The notes under the pieces: generated by a model
The model's input: the letters and a program-made list of their open reading frames with translations, nothing else
Databases searched by the model: none
What the model was told of the DNA's origin: nothing
Assembly (NCBI RefSeq): GCF_036588685.1
Contig: NC_086373.1
Span: forward strand, 42,346,001 to 42,410,000
Direction: 5' to 3'
Origin: Mytilus trossulus
Lineage: Eukaryota
Length of the DNA stretch: 64,000 nucleotides
In this document: piece after piece, positions 43,145 through 64,000 of the stretch
How the letters are laid out: each line of letters opens with the position of its first letter
Position numbering within the stretch: position 1 is the stretch's first letter
Position numbers and translations under genes: made by a program

Positions 43145-43620
43145 ACTACTATAGGGGGTTTTTGGACCCCCCAAAAAGAAATTAAGACCCCCAAGTTATA
43201 TAATCTTACATAATCTCAAATGACATAATATCATGATGTCATGACGTCATACATTTTATAGCACCCATACATTAATGCTGACTCATCCTAATCTTTATCA
43301 CCCATGTTCCTATCATGAATTCATGACGTCATATATTTTATAGCACCCATATATTAATGCTGACTCATCTTTTTATAGCACCCATTGATGTCATACATGA
43401 GTTAAAAAATTATGATTTGATCATCACCTTCTATTTCCCTATTATTTAAATTATTTGGTTCTGAGAAAATTTTCTTCCCCCTTAATTTTTTTAGATGACA
43501 ACTTATGACACCCACTTCTAACCTATCATGACGTCAAACCTATCATAACGTCATAATGCCATACATTTTTATAGCACCCATTCATTTTAATGCTGACTCA
43601 TCCTTTTATAACACCTATTG
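43145..43620. promoter_or_regulatory. Putative left terminal repeat region with clustered CRE and AP-1/ARE motifs
   Basis: TGACGTCA at 43242, 43324 and 43529; TGACTCA (within TGCTGACTCAT) at 43279, 43361 and 43594; TTTATAGCACCCAT repeated at least 4 times; GGGGGT..ACCCCC hairpin next to the ACTACT. Confidence 0.5.
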
Positions 43621-43726
43621 ACAATTGTTTTTTTTTTGGCTTGTGAAACAGGTGATTAATTTTAACACTGACAAGATGTTTGCAATCTTTATAAAATAAA
43701 TGACTAAATACAATATTATTCATAAT

Positions 43727-46700
43727 TTATTGATATGTTGAATTATTCAACATTTTTTGTTCTTTAAAGTACAACAGTTGACTTTCAATCATATCAGCAT
43801 CTTTAATTTCTTTCTGCAATCTTTTTTTAATTCTTTTAAACATGTTCTCGTGATAGTTCATTTTCACTTGTAAGTTGATAAGCCTTTTATTGTTTATTTT
43901 ATCAACCTTTTCCAAATAGGAAATCATCTCATCTTGTTCATTTGATCTGAAAAAATATTTTAATATTTATGTTAAAAGGTTTTGTTGGGTATGAGGGTGT
44001 TGTTTCGTCCTAATCTCAAAGGATGGAACAAATGGAGGTGGAGCAGTGTATCTAAATATTAAATATAAATAAATATATAATCCCAGCGTTTATCTCCTTT
44101 AATATATATATATGACATAATATATAGACTCTAAATAACAGCCCAACACAACAATGTTAGATCTGTAAATTTGCTTTCTCAAATGTTTGTTCTTCCCTCG
44201 CCTGGATTCGAACTCATGCTACTGTGATATCGTGACACCAAATCGCCTTGCACTAAATACCGTCACATCAAACCACTGCGCCACGTCGACCAGATAAAAA
44301 TCTGGTTTTCCGTGGCGTAGTATTACCTTTCCTCGTCGGTTTTAATTTGATGGCGTATTTTAGAACAATATATATATATATATAGAACTGTAGAAATTTG
44401 TTTTGCATGCACACGTATAAAAAATGCGATTTTTATCCAACGCAATCATAGGTTTGAACGTTGTTTTCAATTTAGACTTGTATATATATATATTTTTTTA
44501 TATACAATTTATGTAGGTGTATATGATTATTTTTTGTGGTTTGTAACTGCTGTAATGCCCAATGATGCCCAATCCTATCAGCAATCATACCATATCTCAT
44601 TAATTTGATAAATTAATCTAACAATATTGTAAAACATAAAAAAGAAGAATAAACTTACATTTGTTGGATATGTGGATATCTTTCCGTCTTGATCTCCACG
44701 GATGGAGCAAGCGGAGGTGGAGCAGTGTCTCTAAATATTATATATCAATATACTAAATAAATAAATGATTGGGAATACGTTAAAGTAATAAAAAGTCAAG
44801 AGAATTTCAGAACGCAATTTGGTTCCGAACAATATCTATCACGCTTTGTGCATGCAGACTCCACGCGGCCTTCACGTGATTTTACTATTTTTAGAATAAT
44901 TGCATAGTAACCAAATGCACTTGATTCAACCTTTACTAATTATGCAACATTTTGACCTGGTCGTGATTAATGTCCTATAATAAGAACCCATGCAGCTTTC
45001 ACCTGATTCTCTATTTATAGAAAAATGTCAGATTAACCTGTCCATATGAACTTGATTGATTCTTATCATGTTATTTATATGGAGCGCCTAAATAAATATC
45101 TTATGAACAGAATTTGTAGTGTCAGAAGTTATATTAATTTATTTATGGCATCTTAAACTGTAAATGCATACTATACGCTTTTATACCCCAATATAAAAAA
45201 AAATGAGGCTAATAGGGTGGTAAAGTATAAAGAAATTTAAACAAAATAATTAAACAAAAATAAAGAATACAAACCAATGACATGATAATGGGAAGAATAC
45301 AGAAATTCGCGACTTCCATCGAAACACTCTTTAAGCAACAGTTGCTATTAGCTCATTGGTGAAGGTCGAAAATGCTTCATTTACATATTTTGTGAAGCAA
45401 TTTCTTTATATAATGCATTTGGTTTCGCTCATTGTTGAAGGCCGTAAATGCTTCACTTTTCATATTTTTTAAACAAATTCTAACTAAATATAATGCATTT
45501 GATTTTTCTCATTGTTGAAGGCCGTGAATGCTTCACTTTTCAAATTTTGCTGTGTCCATATCAACGGCAGCTATTTTGACCTTTTTCAAAAGAGATGTCA
45601 AAAACATTTCACTTAAGTCTGATATTCTGTCAGAACATGCTACTTTTACGTTGTTCCCATAAAGGTTTCACTTTTTTTGCTGCATGCAAACTCCAAGCAG
45701 CCTTTACTTGATTTTCAGAATTTTTAGATTGAAAAATTCCGATGTATCCGAGTAATTAAGAACAATCCCGATACAACCGAATGAACTTTCGTCAGGCTTT
45801 ATTATATATCAATATACTAAATAAATAAATGATTGGGAATACGTTAAAGTAATAAAAAGTCAAGAGAATTTCAGAACGCAATTTGGTTCCGAACAATATC
45901 TATCACGCTTTGTGCATGCAGACTCCACGCGGCCTTCACGTGATTTTACTATTTTTAGAATAATTGCATAGTAACCAAATGCACTTGATTCAACCTTTAC
46001 TAATTATGCAACATTTTCGAATAATTCTCTAGAAAATATTTCAATAGGTTCTAAAATTTATGTTGTAAATATAGTACACACTGCAGTTATTAATAGATAA
46101 ATAAAAAAATAACTTGTACCCTTTAATACATCCAATCACAGCGTTCTTAAGTTGACTTCCTACGCCCTGTCTTGGGTACACACAAGGCCAACCTAATGCT
46201 GGGAAAATGTGATACTACCGTTTTCCCTATACATCAAACATTATGAAATTGAATATTTTGTCCAGAACTATACGAATGAAAATTATAATAGATCCAAATT
46301 TTATTCAGATTGTACTATAAAGAAACCGAAGTTTTTTTTCGATTTATTTACATAAACTTATTAAATCAGCTGCAGCATTACTATTATATGTAGACCTTCA
46401 TTGCATAAAACAATGGAAATAACATTGTATATTGATATAAACGATCAAACTTGTTAAATATAAATAAATTCTATATAATCCCGGCGAGGGAAGAACAAAA
46501 TTTGCCACCACAAATCTACATATTTATCATTATTTTGCTGACATTAGAGGAATTATGAATATTATATATATATTACACGGGAAGTAAAGGAGGAGTTTTT
46601 TATTTTAAAATTAAAATAACGACTGAATACAAAGTATGCATGTTCTATTGTGTGATAATGACGTTCCGTACTTCTATATATAGACTAAGTGTAATACGAT

Positions 46701-46981
46701 TTATCTCCCTTAATATACTCAACAACAACTATGACGATACATAGTAACGATGTATAGTTTCACCTGAAGATTGTTTTAAAAACAAACAACATGAAAGTAC
46801 TTGTGAAGTAAAACTATTTATACAGGAAATGTTGGATTTAATAGTAATCTATATATATTTCTATACACAAGAACTTATTGCATCTCCTTATTGCTTTGTA
46901 TATTAATTTAACTTGTGACAATATATGTGAAACATAAAACTATAAAACTTACATTTGAGTGATGCTAGGTTTGCTTTCCAT
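43727..46981 (-). CDS. Spliced small protein (~106 aa), Pro-rich N-terminus plus coiled-coil C-terminus, in the putative Polinton left arm
   Basis: Exons 46981-46953 (ATG..AT|gtaagt), 44730-44659 (tttag|..AT|gtaagt) and 43946-43727 (ttcag|..TAA), all phase 2, give MESKPSITQIDTAPPPLAPSVEIKTERYPHIQQISNEQDEMISYLEK... Confidence 0.55.
44130..44290 (-). mobile_element. tRNA-derived SINE-like element (Pol III A and B boxes)
   Basis: A box TGGCGCAGTGG (44273-44283) and B box GTTCGAATCC (44204-44213); a partial second copy lies at ~46478-46530 on the + strand. Confidence 0.6.
44737..46017. repeat. 217-bp direct repeat pair (44737-44953 and 45801-46017)
   Basis: The two copies appear identical by eye, offset by 1064 bp. 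Confidence 0.85.
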
Positions 46982-47504
46982 CCTTTTGTAGGTTATCAAG
47001 ATTAACTATAGAGTACCATCTATATATTTATATATAAAATTAAACTGTCTAAATTAATTAATATTATATGTTGTATAGTTTAAGGATAAATTCCAATGTC
47101 AGGTTGTAAACGTATTTTCAATTTTAAAATCCGTAAGGCATCCATTATTCATCAATTTTTGTGAAGTTTTAGTCAGATAAATTCATAAATGAAATATGGT
47201 ATTAATTTTACATGTGATTAATTGAAATAATAATTGTTTTAGTCTTCAGGGTACAAAAGCAATAGTGTTACCATTTCAAGACAACAATTTAAAAGTGCAA
47301 CGACACAATTTTTAACAAAAACAATTATTATTATACTTTACTATAGTAACCACTAATAAAATAAACTTCACAAATAATCCCTTTTTCCGGCGCGTACTGC
47401 GCGTAGGCAAAATAACTGTGCGGATATGAGCGCGTAGGCAAAATAACTCATTTGGCGGCAATTTGCACGTCGTCTTTCAAATAACAACTCTAAGTTCAGT
47501 TCAG

Positions 47505-47672
47505 TATAATAATACAGTTATGGCCTTCATAAAAGTTAATATTCAAAATTATTAAATTTCGAAAAAGATTAGTTTACCTCGGTCCTACGGACCTCGAGAA
47601 AAATAACCCTTTTCTCGATTTAATAATTCTGGATATTAACTTTTGATGAAGGCCATGATTGTATATTATTCA
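47505..47672. mobile_element. Fold-back MITE-like palindrome
   Basis: ATGGCCTTCATAAAAGTTAATAT...ATATTAACTTTTGATGAAGGCCAT inverted arms. Confidence 0.7.
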
Positions 47673-47900
47673 ATAAGTAATAATTTTTTTATGAAATTGT
47701 TCTCATTTTAATAGTAAATGTTTAACGAATTTATTGAAAATGCATGGACCATTTGTGTCTGAAATAAGAGATTATCTTATCTTATCGTAATAGGATTCCA
47801 ATACAATAGGATCGAACAATCTAATTTATATGTGGCGAATAGGCCGGGGTCGAAAGATTATCGTTCCACAGGTACGCATGAGCGGCCATTTGCAGAAAAC

Positions 47901-49765
47901 ATGAAGATGTTTTTAGCGGTGATTGTGTTTTCTTTGTATTTTTTTATGTACACAGATGCTTGTTTGTCATGTACAAAATTAGGAATCACCACAGAGTGTC
48001 TGTGCGAAGAAGGAATATGTTTACACATTGAAGATGACAAAATATACCTTGTCAAACTGACTGGATCGTGTAACTGTAATGTTACGTATATATCCAAGAA
48101 ACCCTCACTGGTCCTAAATAGGAACGATGCATCTTGTTCCTGGACATGTTCAAGTTTTCTTTGTTGTAAGTTATTATAGAAACTATACCAATATATTATG
48201 TAACACTCCTCTGATTATAATAATGTTTTTAAATCTTACATGTAATATAACATATGTTTATTTCAAATACAGTTACGTTAATTTTGTCGTCCATTATATA
48301 GTTTCTTGTCCCACTTATTGTCCTACATACAGAAAATGTAGATGCAAACTATTTCATGATTGTGGTTGATTCTGCATATACACATTCTAATAGCTTTAAT
48401 TACAGTTAATGATAAANNNNNNNNNNNNNNNNNNNNNNNNNNNNNNNNNNNNNNNNNNNNNNNNNNNNNNNNNNNNNNNNNNNNNNNNNNNNNNNNNNNN
48501 NNNNNNNNNNNNNNNNNNNNNNNNNNNNNNNNNNNNNNNNNNNNNNNNNNNNTCAAGGATATTGTGTTAATAGAAAAAAAGAAAGAAAAACTGTCAATAC
48601 ATCATAAAGTATTCCTTCAAAATACAACATTTACAAAAATATGAATGAAATCTTGTGTTTATTTTACAGTTCCTGATAATGCAACAGTTACAACCAAAAG
48701 TAATCTGTTACTTACCACACTGACAACAGGTGCAGTACCTCAAAAGACAGAAGCTACAACAGAAAAGACACCAATAACAACAGGAGTAACAACATCAACT
48801 ATCACCATAGGAGAAGCAACAGACACAACACAGACAATATCCATGACAGTAACAACAACAGATATAAATTATACCATTACAGGTACAAAAAAAAAATGTA
48901 TTACCTTTTTTGTACATTGAATTTTGTTGTGTAAAAAATAGATGTAAATCAAGATTTTTGTTTGATTTATGAAATACATTGTTGAAGTGAGCCAAGTTTG
49001 TAATGTCCATTGGCCAATATTTCAAAGATTTTAAGGACAGTGTCACATTATAAACTTTATCTTTCCTGTACTTTTTTTTTCAGAGTTCACCTCTGTAATT
49101 TGAAAAGTAACTTGATCTTAAAGGTGTTTCATTGAGTAAATATTTATATAAATGCCCCAAAAAAAAAAGTGTACAAAACAACACCAATATATATATAAAA
49201 AAAAGAAACATTAAATATAAATATCTATGAATATTTTGGATAACAGATATCCTTCATCAGTATGATAATGATGTAAATTGAATCATATCAATCTATTCTG
49301 ATTTAACTATAATAATTTTTTTTTTTTATAGGATTGTGGATTTGGGCTGTAGTTTTCAGTGTTTTCATTGTAGCTGCCTTAATGAAACTTATTCTTCAAC
49401 TGCGAAAACAACAGAACCAATACTTACCACTGCTTAGAAGCCTTAATTCTACCACAAATTCACATCTTTATAGCCAGACCATGCAGTCCTCATATTTAAG
49501 TATGGAATCATCCCAAACACCATCAGCACAGGGAAATATTAGCACGCCTGAACCATTCAATCGTAGCATCTACACGCCACCACAGTCATCAAGCCCAAAA
49601 CATGATACACTACCATCACCACCTACAGTATTTCATATCAATGACCAAGAGGAATCACCTGAACCTTCTGCATCACCAATTGAATTGATGTCAATATCTC
49701 CCATTGCCAGTAGAACAAGAACCAAAACCAAAAAAAAGATCATGTTTGAGGAAATTAATTTGTAA
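47901..49765 (+). CDS. Spliced type I membrane glycoprotein (~303 aa): signal peptide, 10-Cys ectodomain, Thr-rich mucin stalk, TM helix, Ser/Pro-rich tail
   Basis: Exons 47901-48165 (|gtaagt), 48670-48882 (tttacag|..|gtacaa) and 49332-49765 (tttatag|), all phase 1. Signal MKMFLAVIVFSLYFFMYTDA; TM LWIWAVVFSVFIVAALMKLIL. An N gap in intron 1 could hide further exons. Confidence 0.75.
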
Positions 49766-51496: not shown

Positions 51497-51988
51497 ATGG
51501 AAAAAATTGTTGAAGAGGAAACTGACAGTTTGGCCATTCCTATGGCATACTCACACTCAAGCATGAGATCTAGTATAAGTTCTTTGTTTAGGAACTATGA
51601 CATTCATTTCGACATTTTGAAAATGACAGGAATTTTGGTACTTTTATCTATAATGAGTGCTACTTTGGCAATGACTCATCATATTTATGCTTGTGACAAT
51701 TCTCAAAACAGAACTGATTGTATTTCATTATTAACTACCGACTCTTTGGACCAACAACAAAATTTTAGTTTGTGTACTTACATGAAACAATTTCAATTAC
51801 CAGGACATTACTATGTCACAATATGTACCTATCAAGCAGACATCAGAGTTGATGTCCGAATGTATCTTAATGATAGACCTACAATCAAAGGATTCTTTCT
51901 GAACACAAATCAATATGAATATTTAAAAAGGTTGATACCACATATTGACAAATCTATAAGCAACGCAAGAGCAAGAATAGGACAATGA
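51497..51988 (+). CDS. Transmembrane protein with C-terminal PC4-like ssDNA-binding domain
   Basis: Hydrophobic ILKMTGILVLLSIMSATLAM segment, then FQLPGHYYVTICTYQADIRVDVRMYLNDRPTIKGFFLNTNQYEYLKRLIPHID, matching the PC4 pattern YVTV..F.G...IDIR.Y....P.KKGI.L...QW..L. Confidence 0.75.
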   Translation: MEKIVEEETDSLAIPMAYSHSSMRSSISSLFRNYDIHFDILKMTGILVLLSIMSATLAMTHHIYACDNSQNRTDCISLLTTDSLDQQQNFSLCTYMKQFQLPGHYYVTICTYQADIRVDVRMYLNDRPTIKGFFLNTNQYEYLKRLIPHIDKSISNARARIGQ

Positions 51989-52049
51989 TAAAAGAGAACC
52001 TGGTGGAATTTTCATGTACTATATACTTTTATGTGTGTATATAGACTTT

Positions 52050-52081
<32 letters not shown>

Positions 52082-52120
52082 GGAAATAATCGTATAACTA
52101 TAGATCAGACTGATATCGCT

Positions 52121-52783
52121 ATGAGTGACGAAAAGACGCTTCTCCCCTTTTCTTCCCCGACAACAATGTATATTGCCGGTCCGACGCAATCTGGAAAATC
52201 GATGTTCACCAAAAAACTCATCGAAAATGCTTCAAAAATGTTTACGGAAACACCAGATAGAATCTTGTATGCTTATTCCGAGTATCAGACATTGTTCGAC
52301 GACATGCAGAATATTCCAAATTTAACTTTTCAAGAAGGACTACCAGACAAACAGGAAATAGACGAGTTTACCCTAAATACGAAACATGCTTTAATTATAC
52401 TCGATGATTTAGTATCTAAAATTGTGCAATCCTCCGACCAATTGCATTTGTTTTCTGTAACCAGTCACCACAAAAAGGCATCAGTGGTGCTGATTTCTCA
52501 ATCTTTGTATCCGCCAGGGAAGTTTTCGAAAAGTATATCCCTGAACTGTGCTAATTTTGTCTTGTTTCGTAATCCACGAGATATGCGTCAATTGACAACA
52601 TTTGCCTCTCAGATACTTCCTGGCATGACAAAATATTTTAATGATTCTTATAGAAAGGCAACTCGGGAAAGATTTAACTACCTTTTTGTCGACCTGTCTA
52701 ATCAAAGAGAGGACAGAGAAAAGTTTATGTTACGCACGGGAATTTTCCCCAACGATACTTGTGTGGTTTACAGACCTGTATAA
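52121..52783 (+). CDS. Polinton DNA-packaging ATPase (FtsK/HerA, A32-like)
   Basis: Walker A GPTQSGKS, Walker B LIILDDL, SHH and VLISQ motifs. Start moved to ATG 52121 because the upstream extension is a TA microsatellite. Confidence 0.95.
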   Translation: MSDEKTLLPFSSPTTMYIAGPTQSGKSMFTKKLIENASKMFTETPDRILYAYSEYQTLFDDMQNIPNLTFQEGLPDKQEIDEFTLNTKHALIILDDLVSKIVQSSDQLHLFSVTSHHKKASVVLISQSLYPPGKFSKSISLNCANFVLFRNPRDMRQLTTFASQILPGMTKYFNDSYRKATRERFNYLFVDLSNQREDREKFMLRTGIFPNDTCVVYRPV

Positions 52784-53488: not shown

Positions 53489-56400
53489 TTATTCGCTACA
53501 ATAACCAAACGGTAAAGTACTTAAGTCATTCAAGAGCCGTCTCTTGGTGTACACCATTTTGTATTCTTTTTGCTCTGGTCTGTTATACAATTTTCGTTTG
53601 CAACCAAGTCTAGAAATTTTTCGGGGATTAGTGGTTAGGATCGAATTTCTGTTTTTGTCAACTACAATATCTCTAATCGCCGAAAAATTTATAAGCTCTT
53701 CATTCGCTTTAGTTTGGAGAGAAAATCCTCTTACTTTACACTTTTCCTTTCCTGATACCATCCTGTAGGCGTAATTTTTAGGACCACCGGATACGAAATG
53801 AGTAATATACCCGTCTTCAGTCGAAATTTCGTTGGTCAGTTCACCCAAGTAGTTTCCTATCGGTAGTGTATTTGTGATTTGTTTGTTTCTATCTACAAAT
53901 ATGACGGAATCAGTGTCAACGTAAAGAGTGTTCTCGTCCGTCTTCTCGAGTACTTTATAGAGACTAATTCTAGCCCAACAAGTGGTAAAAGAGGCAATAA
54001 ACACGTTGGTTTTGTAGTCTATAGGTATGAAAGACGGGTAATCGAAATGTTCCGTCTGTACAGTATTTTTATTGATGATGTGAAAGTCCCTTACGTCCTT
54101 TTTTGGATCTGAAAGTAACTGAAAGAATTTGTCGGCTTCATTTTCGGTAAAAAATGTGGTCTGTTTCATGTTTAACCGTTGTCCAAACTTTCCCCAAAAA
54201 CTATTCAAACAAATTTTGGCGAGACTACGAAGACCTGGATTTTTTCTTATTTGATCGTAATCCAAGAGAATTCCTTCCTTTTGGGCATAGTCTGCTATGT
54301 AATCCATCTTTTGTTGTTCCGTTTCACACTCTGAGGGAAATCCGGAAGCTTCCTGTTTTAATTTCAAAAACAAATTAACATACCCGTCAAAAAGACCACC
54401 TTTCCCTGTTTGTCTGTCGTAGATTTTGGTTTCTGCGAAATCATATATTTCATAAATTTTGAGTATTCGATACCCTTTTGAACGAGCCAATTCTAACTCC
54501 GGTGTACACCAAGTTCCTATCATAGATCTGTTTGAATCTGTACATATACAACTACGCTGATTTTCTGTCTCTGCACATTGTTTACATAAAGGAAACTTTA
54601 ATTTTCCGTTCGATAAGTACGGTAAAACAGGATGGTACAGACGTCTCGGTGGAAGAACTTTCACCTTTGCGATACCGAAATAATGTGAGAGATCGGAGAA
54701 ATTGGACGTGACAATGGTTGGATGTCCGATAGGATATTTTGCATATTTATTAACGCTAGGATACAAACTGTAAGAAAAAGAAAAAAGGAGATAAGGTTAC
54801 AGACATATAGGTTATAATTTTTTTTTTTTTTTTTTTTTATTTACCAACTTAAAAACTCTTTTAAAGATAAAGGGGTGTGTGTGAATATGAGTTAATAGTT
54901 TACCACCAGTCGAGTATAGTCAACACGTTAACATGAAATATCAATAATGCTATTGTCATTTTATAAAAAAAAAAAAATTTACTGTTTGATTTGAAAACTA
55001 TACATTATTCAAAAATACTAAGGATTTTTCTACCTTCAGACACAGATTACTGTAGCCACACAACCTTTTTTGGAATTTTTTTTGGTCCACAATGGTTTCA
55101 TCAACTTTGCCTTTTTTTTTTTTGGTCTTTTCAATTATTTCCGCTTCTAGCGTCACTTATGGAGTCTTATATTATATATTATATATATAGACGAAACGCG
55201 GGTAAAAAAAATTTATAAGTCTCTGATTAGGTATTTTTTTACCTCGTAAAATCGTAATATTCAATCGTCTCCCCAGGTTCCGTGGTTTCATGGTACAATC
55301 TTATGGCATTTGTTCTTCCCCCGAAAAAACTGTCTCTCGGGTCAAGGCGATCAGTTACCTCGATAGAAGACACATAAGCTCTAATTTCCTCATCTTGCTG
55401 TAGTTGTTCCATAAACTCATGTTCCCAGACACTGACGTATTCGTACCCTCGACGTTTTAATTCCGTTTCTTTGTTTTTGGTAAGGTAGTATAGTTCGTTG
55501 AGAGAGTGTTTGGTGAGAGGATCGGTGGTACGTGTTCTTTCGTGTGGAAAACAGGACGGACAACCATGGAAACGACATCCTTTGGAAAAAAATAAAATAA
55601 AGAAAAAAATTAAAAAAGAAAAAAATTAAAAAAGAAAAAAAAAATAAGACCGCGCCGCGGACTCGAAGACCGCGCCGCGGACTCGAAGACCGCGGACTCG
55701 AAGACCGCGCCGCGGACTCGAAGANNNNNNNNNNNNNNNNNNNNNNNNNNNNNNNNNNNNNNNNNNNNNNNNNNNNNNNNNNNNNNNNNNNNNNNNNNNN
55801 NNNNNNNNNNNNNNNNNNNNNNNNNNNNNNNNNNNNNNNNNNNNNNNNNNNNNNNNTATGCTATCCTTCTTGTACCTCGTTCTTCATATCCGTCCAATCT
55901 GTAATTCGTACCCTGTACTCTATGTTCTCCTCTTCCATTTAGAGCATGTTGAATATGAATCGTCGGTTGACCATCTTTTCGTCTGGCGGATTCCATGGTC
56001 CATTCTAACCATTGAATTGATATCTTGCTAAAATTGTCTCTCGATACGTAACCTTGCGAAGGGACCAACGCAAGAGGGGTTTTGAGGAAGACAGTCGTCG
56101 GTTTACCATATCTGTCAGAATCTATCGTATCTTTAGTCACCCAATCACCTTCAGGTATTTTGAAATGTACAACGTTGTTTTCATCAAATTTCGTTTGACA
56201 CCTTACAGTCTCATTGTTTCGTCTGTCTATAAGGCGAGTTTCATATTCCTCGTCCAAAAACAATTCCCGGTAAATTGCTTGACACGCAGAGGCTATCGTA
56301 ACGTAATCAAAGGGGTCTATACCTTCCCTTTGAGTTACCATTTCACCATTTGCGTTTAATTTTCTCTCCGACGTGACCTCCATCATTAACTGACGAAATT

Positions 56401-59111
56401 TCATGCAACCACGTCGTAAAATATCTACGTCGGAGACACAGTAGTCGTACATTTCCGATTGAAAGTCAAAAATGGCATTTTGCTTAGACGCATACCATTC
56501 CCGGAATTTCTGGACATCCTTCCCAGACATGTTTTCGATTCCGTAATAACTTTCATCGGGATACGGACCTCGATACGATTGATTTTCCTGTGTGTTAAAC
56601 AAATGCGGAAAATAACCTTTCGTCACCTCTCTCAAACCAAAACATTCTGGTATTTTGGAGAGTTTCATTTGAATGAAATTAAGCGAATCTAGGAAGGTCA
56701 GATCCAGTCCTTTAGAAACGTGCATGTAGTTGATTTTGGAACCGTCAAAAAATAATTTTGTTCGGTTTGACGCTGTGATTGTCCAGGAGACAGTTAAGTA
56801 TGGGATAGTTATCGAATCCCTTGGCATTATGTGCCATCAACACGGTATTTTTATAACAGGGAGTCATGATATGCGAACAAAACTGTTGTGGTACGTCGTT
56901 CCCTCTAAATACCCGTTGTCTAAACCCACAACGGTTCTCGCATGGTAACGGTATTAATTTCTTTCGGAGGACGCTACATGTGTCGCAACGGCTACCACAA
57001 GAGTTACACTTCGAGTCTTTGGTCAATTCTTCGTTCTGGCATTTGACACATGAAGACTGCAGCACGGCAAAGTTTACCTTGTGTTCCGTTAGTCCACACC
57101 ACGATTGATCGCATTTCACGCAAAGACGACATTTATCACACCTTGTCTCCAGATTACATTTCACTTCAACACCTCTTGGTACATGTCCATCCGAACACGA
57201 TGCTTTGGGTTCACCCGCCTCAGAACGTGCACATATACCATTTCTCATAGGAAATTGTCTTCCACAAGGTACTCTTGGTGCGTAGCCATCTGTGCAAACC
57301 ATCAATTCGTTTTGCGTAGTTTCAAAATCGAAAAAAAAAAATTTTCTAGGTTCGTCTGTAGTCGACTCTCTATTTCTTTGCCGGCGTTGAAAACACAAAT
57401 GGTTTCCGAATTGGTATTCGAAACAATTTTTGCATTTCCATTCACCGCACTTGTGATCCTCCGGACTTCTTTTTTGTCTGCAGAGGACTTTTTTGCAGGT
57501 TCTACACTGATAAAATCTCTCGCACATGGACTTCTCTGTGTCCCTTCCTCTGGTGTCTTTCCTCTCGCGATGGCTAATGTAACAATCTTGATTGCGACAT
57601 GTTCGATTGCAATACACGCACTGCTTTTGGTCTGCACTTGACTTGCAATTTTGGCTACCACATACGTCGCACGTATTTATGCAAGAGTGTCTCCCTTTGT
57701 TTTTGTAAGGTATTAAACAAGAAGCACAGAAGTACCCGAATCCAAAAAATCCATTAATGCTACCTATTCCGTCGAAATGCCCTCCTCCGTCTGTGGTGGA
57801 ATTTTCGGTAAGGTACAGGTAAATATTTCTATGGTCTGGGTTATTTGCGACTCGACAGAACTTGTTACCAAGTTTGGCAGACAAAACCAAAATATTGACC
57901 TCAAGCAACTCTTCTAGAGCGTCGATGTCTCTGATCGTTAATGGTTTATTGATTGAAAGGTTGGCCTCTTTACACAAGGTCAATGCCATTGTTTTTCCGT
58001 AGGACTTCTTCCCATCACTTACATGCTTGTAGTAGCTCTTCGTTGTCATCCCATGTTTTATGACCTTCATGAACGTGTTCATATAGGGGGGATCGTTCTT
58101 GGTTACGTTTTTCCATTTGTCTCCGTGTACCATTTCGCACAGTTTTAGAAAACACCTTCCCACGGCAGTGGCCAAACACAAATGGTCGTCGTTGGATATC
58201 CGAAGCATGGATCTTTTCAGAGCTATAGAGCTATTCGGACCATTTAATCTGATGATCGGTAGTGTACGCCCGCTACCGCTTGGTATGGCTATGCGTCCAA
58301 CAACAACGTTCATCTGCGTATCCAAAGGTAAATTTTCTTCGCTATTTAAGACATTTTCCACAGCTGTCATAACTCTGTTAGAGTCGATGTTGGACCATTT
58401 GTCCAATGGTACAACGATGGCATTGTTGAGATCAGGGTGAGTTACGATGACTCTTCCGAGGTCGCCCTCGTTGTTACCTCGAGCTCTGTTAAGAACGTCG
58501 TCAAACATTTCGCGTACTTCTTTCAAAATATCTCTCATCTTTTTCCCTTTCCATTGATCGTTGAATTTGATTTTGTACGTCGTTTCTCTCGCCAAATTTT
58601 TAGAAAATATTTTTTCCCCTGTTTTTTCAAAGATGTACGGTAACGATTCATCCGTTGCCCCATACCCCTTTTGACTGGACTCACCCAAATGGTTGGTCTG
58701 CTTTGTTTGCACCTCTGGTGTGCGAGAAGCTTTCAGTATAGAGATGTTGGGGTTCTGCCTACTTGTTTGTGGAGGATAACTGACTATTTGATTATTTACC
58801 GATTCGTGTACTGTCTGATGTTCCCGTAATTTGGATGGAAGATCGATTTTTATGCCGCAATGTTTACATGTTTGTAGATATGTGAGTCTGTCTATCACTA
58901 ATTGGTTCGTCAAAAGTAGATTATCTATAGCCCAAACGATTAAACTGTTTGCATCCGTAAAGGTCTGTAAAATATTTGTTATGAAATTTGTTATTCGCTG
59001 TTGTATGACAGGATGGCTCGTTAGATAGTTTTCTTCTGCCCATTGGCGGAGTTCCGGTAAGGAAGCAATGGTACTTACGAAATCCGACAAACTTGGATAT
59101 TTCTGGCTCAT
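53489..59111 (-). CDS. polB: Protein-primed DNA polymerase B (pPolB) with terminal-protein/OTU-like N-terminus; two introns and one frameshift
   Basis: Exo I FFDFET, Exo II AHNAKGFD, Exo III YCVSDV, DSFFGGRT, motif A YYDFTS|LYP, motif B KICLNSFWGKF, motif C YVDTDS, GPKNY and KVRGF. Coding segments: 59111 to the N gap (~55856) with an extra A at 56747-56752, then 55579-55243 and 54767-53489. Confidence 0.95.
54768..55242 (-). other. Spliceosomal intron (475 bp, phase 2) in pPolB motif A
   Basis: GAT TTT ACG AG|gtaaaa...ttttcttacag|T TTG TAT CCT restores DFTSLYP. Confidence 0.9.
55580..55855 (-). other. Second pPolB intron (phase 1); donor hidden in the N gap
   Basis: Long polypyrimidine tract ending ttttccaaag|GA TGT CGT TTC CAT GGT TGT. 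This restores RIAY(EFx)G|CRFHGCPSC of the endonuclease-like insert. Confidence 0.75.
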
Positions 59112-59361: not shown

Positions 59362-60450
59362 ATGACAGTATTTTCATACTCAGGGTATAACATGATGGGA
59401 TTCGATAGAGAACGTACCGAATACAGATGCGGTTGCTATTCCGAATACTATTCGCACGATTCATTTTTTTACAACGATTCCAGAGGTGGTTTTGTCAATG
59501 TTTGCGGAAAACACGACCATGAAGATACAGCACGAAGTGATCATTTTGAACATATCAAAGCCGAACGTGTAATAGGAAAAGCTGAAGACGTTTTAACGAC
59601 ACAAATGAAACCTGTCCCTATTATTAGGTATCTAAAGGAACAGAGAATGATTTCCGATGATGATGCAAGCAGGCTGCTAAAATATGATTCAAAGTCTATA
59701 ATGGTAAAGGAGCTGTTACAGATTTTCATTCAGCGTATATCATTAAATCAATTGAGGTTGACATTAATAAAAACTGAACAGACACAGTTACTTAGATATT
59801 TGACAGATTCGGAGCAAAATCAAGAAGACGATACTGAAAAAAGCTACGAAGGAAGATGTATGTTACATCTCGAGGGAGACTGCTATGTCGTTGCCAACGA
59901 CTATAAAGGCTGTATTTACATTCACATTCGCAAATACATGACAAAAGGATCTAAGAAATTTCCAACTAAACAAGGTGCGAGTCTTACGCTCTCCAGATGG
60001 CTGATGTTAAAATCTAAGAAAGATGAGATCGACCTAAAGTTTAAAAACGGACTTGATGGCAAACTTGAAGAAGAAGATTTGATTCATCTAGGAGGTGGTG
60101 TATACATTACAATAAATCCAGAATTCCCTACTGTAGATATTAGACATTTTTGGAGGCCTCAAGATGCACCTAAAGCAGTCGCTACAAAACGCGGTGTAGC
60201 CTTGAATAAGTTTAAATGGGAACGTCTCTGTTATGTAATGGATTTGATGATAGATTTCGTACCAGAATTGAATAGTGGTGTCATCTGTGAGTTTACCCAC
60301 GACAACGAAATGGGTATTTTGGCCTGTAAAGAATGTAATCCCTTCCCGGAAACTGATGAAGACGATCCCGTCCCAGAGGATGAAAACGACACTTTACCAC
60401 TACCACCACTTCTAGACAAACAAGAGGGGATTCCTGAAATTGCTAATTGA
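59362..60450 (+). CDS. CARD-like death-fold domain + two tandem PC4-like domains + C-terminal Zn-binding motif
   Basis: aa ~66-148 show a six-helix CARD pattern (EDVLTTQMKPVPIIRYLKEQRMISDDDASRL..VKELLQIF..LRLTLIKTEQTQLLRYL). PC4 repeats lie at aa ~166-225 and ~240-296, followed by CEFTH..CKEC. Confidence 0.75.
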   Translation: MTVFSYSGYNMMGFDRERTEYRCGCYSEYYSHDSFFYNDSRGGFVNVCGKHDHEDTARSDHFEHIKAERVIGKAEDVLTTQMKPVPIIRYLKEQRMISDDDASRLLKYDSKSIMVKELLQIFIQRISLNQLRLTLIKTEQTQLLRYLTDSEQNQEDDTEKSYEGRCMLHLEGDCYVVANDYKGCIYIHIRKYMTKGSKKFPTKQGASLTLSRWLMLKSKKDEIDLKFKNGLDGKLEEEDLIHLGGGVYITINPEFPTVDIRHFWRPQDAPKAVATKRGVALNKFKWERLCYVMDLMIDFVPELNSGVICEFTHDNEMGILACKECNPFPETDEDDPVPEDENDTLPLPPLLDKQEGIPEIAN

Positions 60451-60635
60451 GTTGTGTAAAGAAAAGAACCGTATATTATATACCGTATATTATATATATA
60501 TATATATATATATATGCATTATTAAATTATACATCGATTCATCAGGCGTTATGTGTTTTTTTTTTTTTTATTCTCTCCTTCTCGAGCTATCCCGATAGGA
60601 GGTAGCACTTTGGTATGTGAGACATTCCCATTCCA

Positions 60636-60926
60636 GATTTAAAAAAAAAAGATCAAATCATAAAACGAGTATTAACATGAAAGGTTTAAAAACATATTTA
60701 ATACGTGATTCATTGGTATAACATTAATTACGTTGGTGACTCTTGAATGGGCTCATGAAAATGAGTAAAAAAAACCAAAAAAAAAAAAAACGATTTAAAA
60801 AAAAATCAAATCATAAAACGAGTATTAACATGAAAGGTATAAAAACATATTTAATACGTGATTCATTGGTATAACATCCATTACGTTGGTGACTCTTGAA
60901 TGGGCTAATGAAAATGAGTAAAAAAC
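60636..60926 (+). repeat. 153-bp tandem duplication of the integrase upstream region and first codons
   Basis: ATCAAATCATAAAACGAG...ATGAAAATGAGTAAAAAA occurs at 60652 and again at 60805. Confidence 0.9.
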
Positions 60927-62083
60927 AAAAAGAAGATTACATCAGAAAAATATGGACTGACCCCAGTCATCCTGCAGCATTTGCCGGTCCTGATAAACTT
61001 TATAAAATAATTCAAAAAGATGGGAAGTTTGACATAGGTCGCGGCAGCGTTAAAAGAATTTTAGCCAAAATAGATACTTATAGTGTTCAGAGACCTACTA
61101 GAAAAAAGTTTAAAAGAAATAGGGTAATCGTGTCTGGTATCGATGCGCAATGGGACGGTGACCTCGCATCCATGGAAAATGTATCGAAATACAATAAATA
61201 CAAATTTTTACTGATACTGATAGATATATTTTCCAGGTATCTAATAGTCAGACCGTTAAAGGATAAAAAAAGCACTACCGTTGCAACGGCATTAAAATCT
61301 ATTTTTAATCAAAGTAACAGAAGACCATCAACTATTCGTTTCGATCAGGGAGGAGAGTTCAAAGCGAGTGTAAAACAATATTTGAAGAAAACAGGGATTC
61401 ATGTTTTTTACACCCATAACTCTCAGATAAAGAGTAACTATGCGGAAAGAGTTATCAGAACGTTAAAAAATCGTATATATTCCTATTTCATGGAAAACCA
61501 AACGTACAAATATATAGATGTACTTCAGGATCTGGTAACTAGTTATAATAATACTCCACATCAGTCGTTAGGAGGTGCAACACCAACTTCGGTGACGAAA
61601 AAAAATGAGGATGAAATTCGGTACGTCCAATACCTAGCAAGGCAAAAAAATAAAAAACCAAAGAAAACGACAAAGCAAAAAAACCAAAAACCAATAAAAA
61701 TGACAAAATCCAAGAAGAAGAAACGACCTTTCTATAAATTTAATTTGGGTGATCACGTCAGAGTTTCTCAACTAAAAAGAGTATTCGAGAAAGGATATCA
61801 GGAAAATTGGACATTGGAATATTTTACGATTTCAAAAAGATTTAAAAGAGATAATCTTGACATTTATGTTTTATTTGATGCCTTAGGTGATAGAATTGAA
61901 GGAACATTTTACCGAAATGAACTTCAGAAAATAGAAAAATCTGATACTGAACTATATAAAATTGAAAAAATTACCAAGAAAAGAAAGATAGCGGGGAAGG
62001 ACCAAGTTTTAGTTAAATGGTTGGGATGGCCTTCTAAATTTAACTCGTGGGTATCCAAGGATGAAGTAAAAGAATTCAAATAG
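60908..62083 (+). CDS. int: Retroviral-type (c-int) DDE integrase with C-terminal chromodomain
   Basis: WDGDL..IDIFSR, RFDQGGEF and AERVIRTLK; SH3-like FNLGDHVRVS; chromodomain YKIEKI...VLVKWLGWPSKFNSWV. Confidence 0.95.
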   Translation: MKMSKKQKEDYIRKIWTDPSHPAAFAGPDKLYKIIQKDGKFDIGRGSVKRILAKIDTYSVQRPTRKKFKRNRVIVSGIDAQWDGDLASMENVSKYNKYKFLLILIDIFSRYLIVRPLKDKKSTTVATALKSIFNQSNRRPSTIRFDQGGEFKASVKQYLKKTGIHVFYTHNSQIKSNYAERVIRTLKNRIYSYFMENQTYKYIDVLQDLVTSYNNTPHQSLGGATPTSVTKKNEDEIRYVQYLARQKNKKPKKTTKQKNQKPIKMTKSKKKKRPFYKFNLGDHVRVSQLKRVFEKGYQENWTLEYFTISKRFKRDNLDIYVLFDALGDRIEGTFYRNELQKIEKSDTELYKIEKITKKRKIAGKDQVLVKWLGWPSKFNSWVSKDEVKEFK

Positions 62084-62120: not shown

Positions 62121-62543
62121 ATGAGTCTGAGAATTGTTGTCTCTTCAGCAGACGGGATTGACTTATTTTCCGATAATCAAACTTTTAATTTCAGAGTCAA
62201 ATTGAATAGAACAATACAGTTAGATGGATATTGGGTTGTGGCACTAACGGAGTTTACTTCGACCGAACAAGTTGACTTACACAAATCATTATTTATTTTT
62301 TCGGATATGTGTCAACAAAGTTTTATAGGAAACAACGAGCAACCATTACTTAGAAGAGTACAATTTGAGAGAAGAAATCAACGCAATATGATATTTTACA
62401 ATCCTTATTACATCCCTGTTCGAACAGGCTCAATGGAACATATCCATGTATATATAACAGATGATAAAGGAGTATTTGCTTCATTTCTCAAACAGCCGGT
62501 TACACTGACACTTCATTTTAAAAAGTTTCCTTTTGTCCTTTAA
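62121..62543 (+). CDS. Minor capsid protein (penton, single jelly-roll)
   Basis: N-terminal F.DN...NFRVKL...L.G.W.VAL.E and C-terminal PLLR..YIPV..I.VYITD..G..LHF motifs typical of Polinton pentons. Confidence 0.85.
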   Translation: MSLRIVVSSADGIDLFSDNQTFNFRVKLNRTIQLDGYWVVALTEFTSTEQVDLHKSLFIFSDMCQQSFIGNNEQPLLRRVQFERRNQRNMIFYNPYYIPVRTGSMEHIHVYITDDKGVFASFLKQPVTLTLHFKKFPFVL

Positions 62544-62544
62544 G

Positions 62545-62997
62545 ATGAACAGTTTGACATATGTAACAGATCCTAGTATGTGGGAGAAATTTTATAAAAA
62601 TATGGTAAACAGAAATTTTAATCCATACAAATACAAAAACAGTAAAAGAATAAATCAGACAGGGCGTGGTTTACATGGCAGATATAGGGGTTCCTACATG
62701 ATTCCTGTTAACGCAAATGCTGTGGAGGAGACTGAGCCGATGCAGGGCCCTACGACTATGGTGTCACCAGTTGCTGCTGCAGAAGAGAGAGCATTTTCAC
62801 AAATGAAAACAGAAACGGCTAAACCACATGTTAAGATACAGAAACATATAAAACGGTCAAGGAAACATAAAATAGTCAGTAGAAAAAAATCGAACAAGAA
62901 GTCAACATCTAAACTGAAAAAGAAAAAAACTTTCAAAAGGAAAATCAGAAACGATTATTCTGATAGTGTGTGGAATATCAAAAAGAGAAAGAAGTAA
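62545..62997 (+). CDS. Basic, Lys-rich putative DNA-condensing core protein
   Basis: Lies between penton and major capsid; contains a QTGRG motif and a very basic C-terminal third. Confidence 0.7.
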   Translation: MNSLTYVTDPSMWEKFYKNMVNRNFNPYKYKNSKRINQTGRGLHGRYRGSYMIPVNANAVEETEPMQGPTTMVSPVAAAEERAFSQMKTETAKPHVKIQKHIKRSRKHKIVSRKKSNKKSTSKLKKKKTFKRKIRNDYSDSVWNIKKRKK

Positions 62998-62999
62998 TC

Positions 63000-64000
63000 A
63001 TGTCTTTTTTGAGCGGGGATAATAAGGATATTGGACAACCTCAGGAATTATCTATTTTTGCATCTCCTCCTAATCAAGTAGCTGTTGAAAAAGTAACATA
63101 CACGGAAGAACGACCTATTTCGAATTTAATCAATGATTCTACCCCCATAGAAATAGTTGTTTCTGGAGCTGGAAATGATTATATAGATTTAAGAAAAAGT
63201 CGTCTATATGTCAAAATGCAAATTTTAAAATCAGATGGAACTAAGCTAGTAGATGATGAAAAAACAGGTATCATTAATTTACCGTTGCAGAGTATGTTTT
63301 CACACATTGATATTTACATGAACAATAAGCTTATATCAATAAATTCCAACAATTATCCTTGGAAAGCCTATTTCAAGACGATACTTTCTTCTGGAAACGA
63401 TGAACAGAATTCACAACTTCAAAGCCAACTCTTCATGAAAGACGATGACCCTATGGACTCTGTGAGTCTCAATTCCGGTATAGTTAACAGAATGCAATTT
63501 ACACAAGATTCAAGAGTATTCGAGTTAGAAGGAAATTTATTGGAAGATGCACTTCAACTGGATAAATATCTTATAAGTGGTGTCGATATCTACATGAAAC
63601 TTTTCAGATCAAATGTTCCCTTTCTACTCATGTCTGAAGAAATTTCGCCAAGTTACAAAGTCAAAATTTTGGATGTGTTTTATAGAACCGCGAGAGTCAA
63701 ATTGGACCCGGGAGTTATAATGAACCATCGAAACGAAATACAAAAATCACCAGCCCAATACATGATCACTAGAAGTCACGTTATACAAAATGTAATTCCT
63801 AAGGGGTCAACTGATTTTTTTTGGGATGCAATGTTTCCGAAAGCTCTTCCATCAAAAGTAGTAATTGGGCTAGTTTCCCAAAAAGCTGCAAATGGAGATT
63901 ATACTGCTAATCCGTTTAATTTTCAACATTTCAACATGACAAACGTTACTATGAAAGTGAATGGCGTGGAGGTTTATGGGTCTCCATTGAGTTTGGATTT
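63000..64000 (+). CDS. Major capsid protein (double jelly-roll), truncated by the window edge
   Basis: Open from ATG 63000: ELSIFASPPNQ..RPIS..PIEIVVSG..YIDLRKSRLYVK..NLPLQSMFS..NNYPWKAY..NPFNFQHF, the Polinton MCP pattern. It is missing from the ORF track because it has no stop in the window. Confidence 0.92.
   Translation, partial: MSFLSGDNKDIGQPQELSIFASPPNQVAVEKVTYTEERPISNLINDSTPIEIVVSGAGNDYIDLRKSRLYVKMQILKSDGTKLVDDEKTGIINLPLQSMFSHIDIYMNNKLISINSNNYPWKAYFKTILSSGNDEQNSQLQSQLFMKDDDPMDSVSLNSGIVNRMQFTQDSRVFELEGNLLEDALQLDKYLISGVDIYMKLFRSNVPFLLMSEEISPSYKVKILDVFYRTARVKLDPGVIMNHRNEIQKSPAQYMITRSHVIQNVIPKGSTDFFWDAMFPKALPSKVVIGLVSQKAANGDYTANPFNFQHFNMTNVTMKVNGVEVYGSPLSLD

Follow-up and report, generated by a model that had tools for sequence, protein, structure and literature searches.

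A predicted CARD fused to tandem PC4 repeats in a young Polinton of Mytilus trossulus

The DNA that we analyzed (the window) is a 64,000-nucleotide stretch of contig NC_086373.1 from Mytilus trossulus. It contains most of a young 22-kb Polinton, at 43145-65373, and this Polinton carries a CARD-PC4-PC4 gene. From its N-terminus, the encoded protein comprises a Cys/His module (aa 12-52) and a CARD (aa 63-151), after which come two PC4 repeats and a tail with Cys/His residues. Our preferred but tentative reading, to which we give nearly an even chance, is that this is a Polinton ssDNA-binding protein for replication that carries a CARD decoy, which damps the host's death or immune signalling. The viral origin of this kind of gene, the repeated recruitment of CARDs, and a cassette of CARD and TBP genes all appear to be new.

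The first-pass annotation of this DNA had recognized a Polinton, and we agree. Pfam identifies both pPolB and a retroviral-type integrase, the combination that marks Polintons/Mavericks, and the element also has terminal repeats and a perfect target-site duplication (identical 6-bp flanks). As had been stated, the CARD-PC4-PC4 gene is transcribed divergently from pPolB: the polymerase starts at 59111 on the reverse strand, so the two genes are head-to-head. The polymerase is split over several ORFs, by mutation or by assembly error, and its N-terminal part is Cys-rich. The names of the virion genes (Table 1) follow the gene order and the usual Polinton anatomy, so they are presumptive. This block has the same gene order in two other elements (L077 and L078), and the protease of a related element matches PF00770. 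Three further copies of the Polinton are 98-99.8% identical. Each of the four copies is broken or rearranged differently, and the CARD-PC4-PC4 frame is open in all four.

The element has other features of note. The ~5 kb inside its left end (43410-49000) contains short ORFs only, including a secreted-looking Cys-rich ORF (47901-48179) and a Thr-rich ORF (48645-48920), and is mostly missing from the other three copies. A direct repeat of ~150 bp (~95% identity) lies at 60630-60930, between the CARD-PC4 gene and the integrase. There is also a second PC4-like gene, which has counterparts in three elements (L063:5897-6406, L078:259-711, and L176:4921-5454). It adjoins the CARD-PC4 gene in two elements and is present in one element that has no tandem PC4. 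Between the hydrophobic segment and the degenerate PC4-like domain are cysteines and N-x-S/T sites, and the product is possibly a membrane protein with its PC4 fold on the luminal side.

Table 1. Features of the Polinton, with positions in the window
Feature	Position	Strand	Remarks
Left terminal inverted repeat	43145..43409	.	Right copy at 65109-65373, outside the window; 99.2% over 265 bp
Second PC4-like gene	51497..51988	+	Hydrophobic segment, then one degenerate PC4 domain; PF02229 E = 0.035
Packaging ATPase	52031..52783	+	Weak Pox_A32 and Adeno_IVa2 matches
pPolB, protein-primed DNA polymerase B	53489..59111	-	PF03175; several ORF pieces
CARD-PC4-PC4 ORF	59362..60450	+	362 aa; probable start M12 = nt 59395
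N-terminal beta-hairpin module, aa 12-52	59395..59517	+	C23, C25, C48, H51; putative Zn site; this sub-clade only
Diverged CARD (predicted), aa 63-151	59548..59814	+	Homologue Pfam matches, family profile, model, structure alignment
PC4 repeat 1	59854..60057	+	Y181, R190, K203 = F77/R86/R100 equivalents kept; W89 equivalent absent (M193)
PC4 repeat 2	60076..60270	+	F255, D259, R261, W264, K276, R277 = F77, D84, R86, W89, R100, K101 equivalents
C309-H313-C322-C325 tail	60286..60336	+	Hallmark of the Polinton tandem-PC4 family; putative Zn site
C-terminal acidic tail	60346..60447	+	34 aa (12 D/E, 1 K/R); low-confidence model
Retroviral-type integrase with chromodomain	60908..62083	+	PF00665, PF00385
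Virion gene block (presumed): penton-like, basic core-like, major capsid protein	62121..64000	+	Protease outside the window; no Pfam match

The CARD-PC4-PC4 protein likely starts at M12 because its homologues start at this column. The AlphaFold model has a mean pLDDT of 79. A homodimer prediction for aa 12-330, with the alignment left out, scored 0.00 in two runs. In ~6% of one raw RNA run, 6 reads fell within 8.1 kb and 0 on the CARD-PC4 gene; three contig sets that we guess to be RNA cover the gene, but they cover intergenic DNA too. IMG/VR searches with three proteins (P0022, P0001, and P0189) found no locus.

The two PC4-like repeats of the first-pass annotation are confirmed by PF02229, which matches two stretches (E = 5.7e-12; 45.4 bits, with a cut-off of 25 bits). 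The best sequence match in PDB is human PC4, and when we compared the whole model to PDB with Foldseek, 1pcf aligned with a TM-score of 0.91 (by target length). The residues that contact ssDNA in PC4 are taken from PMC4350104. Repeat 2 has the full set, with the stacking residues F77 and W89 and the basic contacts. Repeat 1 lacks the W89 equivalent, both here and in most family members. R190, R261, and H242 are 99-100% conserved (110 rows). Because both repeats align jointly to repeats I-II of Pur-alpha (Z = 11.3, rmsd 4.0, 130 residues), we think that they are likely to fold as one intramolecular dimer.

The CxxxH..CxxC tail is also as had been described, and C309, H313, C322, and C325 are conserved in 98-100% of the 110 rows. 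The N-terminal module was overlooked in the first-pass annotation. Of the 12 rows that include it, 11-12 conserve C23, C25, C48, and H51. Judging purely by residue pattern, both of these Cys/His sites are likely to bind Zn. The module has no PHROG family and no Atlas match, and a structure search with it found no clear fold match (best Z = 3.4; best viral E = 0.15). Within this genome, we found it only in the CARD-PC4 gene family and in decayed remnants of that family. For instance, decayed remnants of another member are at G000:C1:46.25-46.27 Mb (L161-L163).

The CARD call is transitive, via relatives, and structural, because neither the whole protein nor the isolated segment matches PF00619 and because the segment scores just 11.2 bits against a profile built from nine canonical Polinton CARDs (a score reached by 1 of 994 scored shuffles). 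A 47%-identical paralogue, P0023, scores 48.6 bits against the same profile and, with 26.2 bits, matches PF00619 above the gathering cut-off. Of 20 homologues, 14 match PF00619, 7 of the 20 above the curated gathering cut-off, and 4 of the 6 homologues that have no match start inside the domain. The family profile finds the CARDs of Apaf-1 (E = 1.3e-5) and BCL10 (E = 1.2e-3). AlphaFold places six helices between aa 54 and 147 (pLDDT 82-96); the alignment behind this model included CARDs that are more canonical, from which the model is not entirely independent. The modelled domain aligns to the CARD of caspase-9 (89 residues) and to that of Apaf-1 with Z = 10.8 and rmsd 1.9 in both cases; for helical bundles, Z below 13 alone is not conclusive, and here the family sequence profile concurs. 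In this wide structure search, death folds fill ranks 3-31, death domains and DEDs have Z of at most 8.4, and the SP100 CARD is at rank 41 (Z = 7.8). The Foldseek search of PDB with the whole model listed no CARDs; the wide search did.

These results agree with the first-pass annotation of CARD-like helices at ~66-148, for which AlphaFold and a structure search had been suggested as checks, and they support its view that the Polinton captured a host-type death fold. A chance helical pattern is rejected by the PF00619 matches of the homologues, the family profile, and the structure search. The CARD is not a non-conserved N-terminal extension either: it is kept across homologues, and the six-helix fold and the domain length are retained throughout the clade. 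Its surface has diverged, with at most 23% identity to the 11 host CARDs that we sampled, and it has lost the RRGP-x-AF stretch that is common to canonical Polinton CARDs and host CARDs. The CARD of this sub-clade is on a long branch (0.97) in the CARD tree, and mean identity within the sub-clade is 36% for the CARD versus 54-65% elsewhere.

Across four pairs, with dS close to saturation in most, dN/dS for the CARD was 0.09, 0.27, and 0.34 (fused) and 0.30 (stand-alone). This compares to 0.05-0.27 for the PC4 repeats, 0.13 for the integrase, and 0.08 for the capsid protein. Except for the tail, the CARD has the highest dN/dS of the folded domains. These ratios indicate that the CARD is under purifying selection yet is the fastest-changing folded domain. 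Because it is the least conserved folded domain, it fits the role of a host-facing part; the faster change also fits relaxed constraint. One oyster-type copy (L077) has a stop within the CARD.

We searched for the tandem-PC4 family with a profile and found 2361 proteins at E = 0.001, of which we analyzed the best 150. Among these best 150 of 2361, 107 have a near-complete tandem PC4 and tail, and 9 of these 107 full-length representatives match the CARD profile, although some of the other 98 may be N-terminally cut short. The first-pass annotation had proposed a survey of mollusc Polintons for PC4-PC4 proteins with and without a CARD; our set includes both kinds. Polintons commonly carry the tandem-PC4 core, to which the CARD is an add-on.

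There are named homologues in Mytilus, Crassostrea (CARD-PC4x2 proteins XP_052680649.1 and XP_034306234.1), Pinctada, and abalone, and ESM Atlas has an automatic cluster of 61 CARD+PC4 proteins, mainly from Mollusca. Within this genome, L005 is a 47%-identical paralogue, and the P0022 family has a textbook CARD (PF00619, 64 bits) and no N-terminal module. The nearest relatives of the P0022 CARD in PDB are RAIDD (E = 1.4e-6) and the caspase-9 CARD (E = 2.6e-6). The database names of P0026, P0037, and P0025 (CASP2 or LZTFL1) look like misannotations.

Wherever the flanking sequence suffices, the CARD-PC4 gene is intronless and has a fixed place upstream of the integrase (the window and its three copies, L005, L007, C5:21.86 Mb, L077, and L078). 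Two elements with CARD-PC4 genes have polymerases that are 59-60% identical to this element's. This genome also has other Polinton families. In seven regions around their major capsid genes, we found no tandem-PC4 match, and the polymerases that we compared from three of these seven had no significant match to this element's polymerase. Polintons have two deeply split polymerase classes, according to a preprint (bioRxiv 2023.08.22.554363). Because the seven other-family regions lack tandem PC4, the CARD-PC4 gene would at most serve the elements with this class of polymerase. The first-pass annotation had suggested that the protein is the element's replication SSB, which is possible for this class; a universal SSB of Polintons is rejected.

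In a tree of PC4 cores (135 rows), the majority of CARD fusions are in one clade of bivalves (mussels, oysters, and pearl oyster), with 96% SH-aLRT support in a 42-row subset. By their cores, these fusions cluster with tandem-PC4 proteins that have no CARD, for example those of mini-elements. Five fusions are outside the main clade (P0076, P0102, P0069, and the abalone-type P0129 and P0140). Forcing all 15 CARD fusions into one clade is rejected (p-AU = 9e-6), in a quick tree whose rows were chosen after the first tree was known and with the CARD of P0069 called by eye. The trees suggest that the CARD was fused to the PC4 core repeatedly and separately in several lineages. Alternatively, there could have been multiple losses, or recombination.

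In a second Polinton family of this genome, which persists as internally deleted elements of 4-6 kb, the CARD is a separate gene. We examined ten regions: four have a stand-alone CARD, four have tandem PC4 only, and two are not Polinton-like. In all four elements with a stand-alone CARD (PF00619, 52 bits), it lies directly before a TBP gene (PF00352, 73 bits), which is truncated in one of them. In one of the four, a CARD-less tandem PC4 is immediately upstream, which puts PC4x2, CARD, and TBP genes in a row. The cassettes are at G000:C13:11101339-11107091 (L066), C8:79.35 Mb, C15:2.53 Mb, and C10:68.27 Mb. These short elements have terminal repeats, and the TBP gene overlaps the end of the CARD gene. 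TBP-like genes are also named in the legend of a MELD-virus figure.

As to the donor of the CARD, a tree of 50 CARDs had no resolution at depth, and the two host CARDs that are most similar to Polinton CARDs have no caspase-domain match nearby. The genome has at least 150 CARD matches. Host paired-CARD exons are in large tandem expansions (G000:C5:72-85 Mb, C8:54-57 Mb, and C9:75-77 Mb), and these are possibly RIG-I-like receptors.

A gene of this type has probably been described in oyster, as CgCARDCP-1. This protein reportedly consists of an N-terminal, caspase-2-like CARD and two PC4 domains, is said to have 253 amino acids, and reportedly has a small effect on NF-kB. The oyster family analyzed here has 328 amino acids, as against the reported 253. 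The title presents CgCARDCP-1 as a host LPS receptor with NF-kB activation (Wang et al. 2018, doi 10.1016/j.fsi.2018.05.018); elsewhere it is cited as an oyster PC4 study, with a remark on stimulation by LPS and Vibrio. On two contigs, full Polinton gene arrays contain homologues that share 73-74% identity with one of the named CARD-PC4x2 proteins of Crassostrea. Because the oyster-type homologues sit inside such arrays, we consider it quite probable that CgCARDCP-1 is itself a Polinton gene.

How might the protein work? In our preferred reading, the tandem PC4 core, a predicted ssDNA binder, would serve the element's strand-displacing polymerase. The two repeats would pair within the chain as those of Pur-alpha do, held together by the Cys/His tail, and would coat displaced strands in protein-primed replication, as adenovirus DBP does. 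The CARD would bind a host CARD of the caspase-2/RAIDD/caspase-9 type and, having no protease, would poison the host assembly, as iridovirus CARD-only proteins do. Through its fusion to PC4, the decoy would be enriched on viral ssDNA, the place at which host sensors would also collect. The CARD of this sub-clade is strongly diverged and has acquired a putative Zn module, so the target may have changed.

The replication role is consistent with the conserved PC4 contacts (complete in repeat 2), the head-to-head arrangement with pPolB, and the shared polymerase class; the seven Polinton regions without tandem PC4 argue against it as a general role. The decoy is consistent with the similarity of the canonical P0022 CARD to RAIDD and caspase-9 and with a CARD that seems to be under selection while being the least conserved folded domain. 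Because the CARD is also a separate gene in four elements, it can act untethered. For the same reason, the coupling of replication to immunity that the first-pass annotation proposed is less likely to be obligatory. We favor an SSB with a CARD decoy because of this stand-alone form, because GIV-CARD of an iridovirus is described as an early gene that blocks apoptosis (PMC4457926), and because adintoviruses are reported to encode homologues of Bcl2 and IAP (PMC8502044). On the other hand, the low identity to host CARDs and the loss of RRGP-x-AF count against a decoy. So does the repeated fusion to PC4, which exceeds what a free decoy needs, and the title on CgCARDCP-1 speaks of NF-kB activation, not inhibition. 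Also, the stand-alone CARD beside TBP in all four elements hints at transcription.

A role in transcription or replication is what we would expect if the CARD were a self-polymerizing handle, like those of Aire and SP100, which gathers PC4 units into filaments or condensates and so builds a compartment with the TBP of the element or the host. Aire also has a CARD and a DNA-binding domain, and CARD filaments are described as making nuclear foci; PC4 is described as a coactivator at the TFIIA-TFIID stage (PMC8328476); and the row of PC4x2, CARD, and TBP genes fits. Independent fusions would suit a function that requires linked parts, and the loss of the host-like surface in this clade fits an interface for self only. 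Nevertheless, we think that this is unlikely: 98 of the 107 tandem-PC4 representatives (from the best 150 of 2361) show no CARD, so the core works alone; canonical members resemble apoptotic CARDs, with the SP100 CARD just at rank 41 (Z = 7.8); and a stand-alone CARD cannot polymerize a separate PC4 protein unless both bind. The repeated CARD-PC4 fusion is also what would be seen if ssDNA clustered the CARDs and thereby nucleated signalling by the host's caspases or NF-kB. The cell's death could in this way be timed to the release of particles, or integrated copies could kill cells that are invaded by another DNA virus. AIM2 and IFI16 have the same plan, a death fold with tandem nucleic-acid-binding domains, and the title on CgCARDCP-1 and the reported stimulation by LPS and Vibrio point the same way. 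But stand-alone CARDs are unable to sense DNA, the viral CARD precedent is inhibitory (PMC4457926), and the gene remains in mobile, recently inserted elements, with no fixed host locus seen, so a trigger of this kind seems quite unlikely to us.

The divergence of this sub-clade's CARD might instead mean that it is a relic, retained as a structural spacer or as a platform for the Zn module, with no signalling role. It has no Pfam match, scores 11.2 bits against canonical Polinton CARDs, has a branch length of 0.97, and has the top dN/dS of the folded domains, tail aside. However, the six-helix fold and the length are retained, its dN/dS of 0.34 is well below 1, and canonical CARDs persist in sister clades, which makes a relic very improbable. 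Finally, the published reading of CgCARDCP-1, as given by its title, and database names such as CASP2 for homologues would suit a domesticated immune gene of the host, encoding an LPS receptor, that happens to be inside a Polinton or was once picked up by one. We find this scarcely credible: in all elements whose flanks are long enough, the gene is intronless and stands at the same position ahead of the integrase, and by its core it clusters with tandem-PC4 proteins without a CARD, for example those of mini-elements. At this locus, a host gene is ruled out by the terminal repeats and the target-site duplication.

If the CARD and the core were joined repeatedly and independently, then selection would have favored a link between viral ssDNA and death-fold signalling. 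We can go further and speculate that mollusc Polintons have assembled AIM2-like proteins several times independently, by joining captured host CARDs to a viral ssDNA-binding core, that displaced strands cluster these CARDs and thereby turn host CARD signalling off or on where replication takes place, and that Polintons are the true source of CgCARDCP-1 and of some scallop "PC4 stress genes". As a whole, we regard this as doubtful. If it is true, then the induction of CgCARDCP-1 or of those scallop genes reports the activation of endogenous viruses. For animal Polintons, we know of no replication accessory factor and no immune antagonist that has been defined by experiment, and the CARD-PC4-PC4 protein offers a concrete candidate for both roles, one that can be expressed.

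There is likely an annotation trap here, as work on bivalve immunity and stress takes the genes for CARD-PC4 and two-repeat PC4 proteins to be the host's, and some of them are called CASP2 in databases. The PC4 of bay scallop is described as intronless, with two repeats (PMC9223095), and according to the supplement, this gene (Arg0233380.1), which was studied as a host heat-stress PC4, has Polinton-type repeats and the Cys/His tail. The "G3" IAPs of hard clam and mussels combine BIR and PC4 domains, and many clam IAPs are intronless (PMC7831173). The G3 proteins may be another fusion of a death regulator to the Polinton PC4 core. Our search for longer PC4-core fusions, which is weak by the tool's own note, found three proteins, including one CARD fusion and no BIR.

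The first-pass annotation knew of no description of the fusion. In the open-access literature that we searched, we found nothing that ties the CARD-PC4x2 architecture to Polintons, so that much holds. The architecture itself is probably not new, given the 61-member Atlas cluster and probably CgCARDCP-1, and the tandem-PC4 gene already has the label MOSUB in an adintovirus. Among viral proteins, the top fold match is MOSUB of the Branchiostoma lancelet adintovirus (A0A5H3CIS2; E = 3.1e-6 over 182 columns). It is so named on a map in the supplement of Starrett et al. 2021 (Suppl. Fig S2), and the main text does not mention it. Like the gene studied here, it is a tandem-PC4 gene of Polintons; unlike it, it has 203 amino acids, too short for a CARD and two repeats. 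The oyster-type proteins have a canonical CARD and lack the N-terminal Cys/His module.

Other known systems share parts of the protein. Human PC4/Sub1 and repeats I-II of Pur-alpha share its fold and the residues that contact ssDNA, but PC4 is a homodimer with one repeat per chain, while our protein has two repeats in one chain, a Cys/His tail, and no W89 equivalent in repeat 1. The iridovirus vCARD is likewise a virus-borne CARD without a protease. It is a CARD-only protein of 91 amino acids, which corresponds in plan to the stand-alone Polinton CARDs of the second family rather than to the fusion: those are CARD-only, as vCARD decoys are, and the fusion is not. AIM2/IFI16 and Aire/SP100 resemble the protein in plan alone, with a death fold and a DNA-binding domain. 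They are host-encoded and their DNA-binding parts are not homologous to PC4: AIM2 and IFI16 have PYD and HIN (OB folds) and Aire and SP100 have CARD and SAND, where the Polinton protein, lacking the PYD and HIN-200 of an AIM2-like receptor, has a CARD and PC4.
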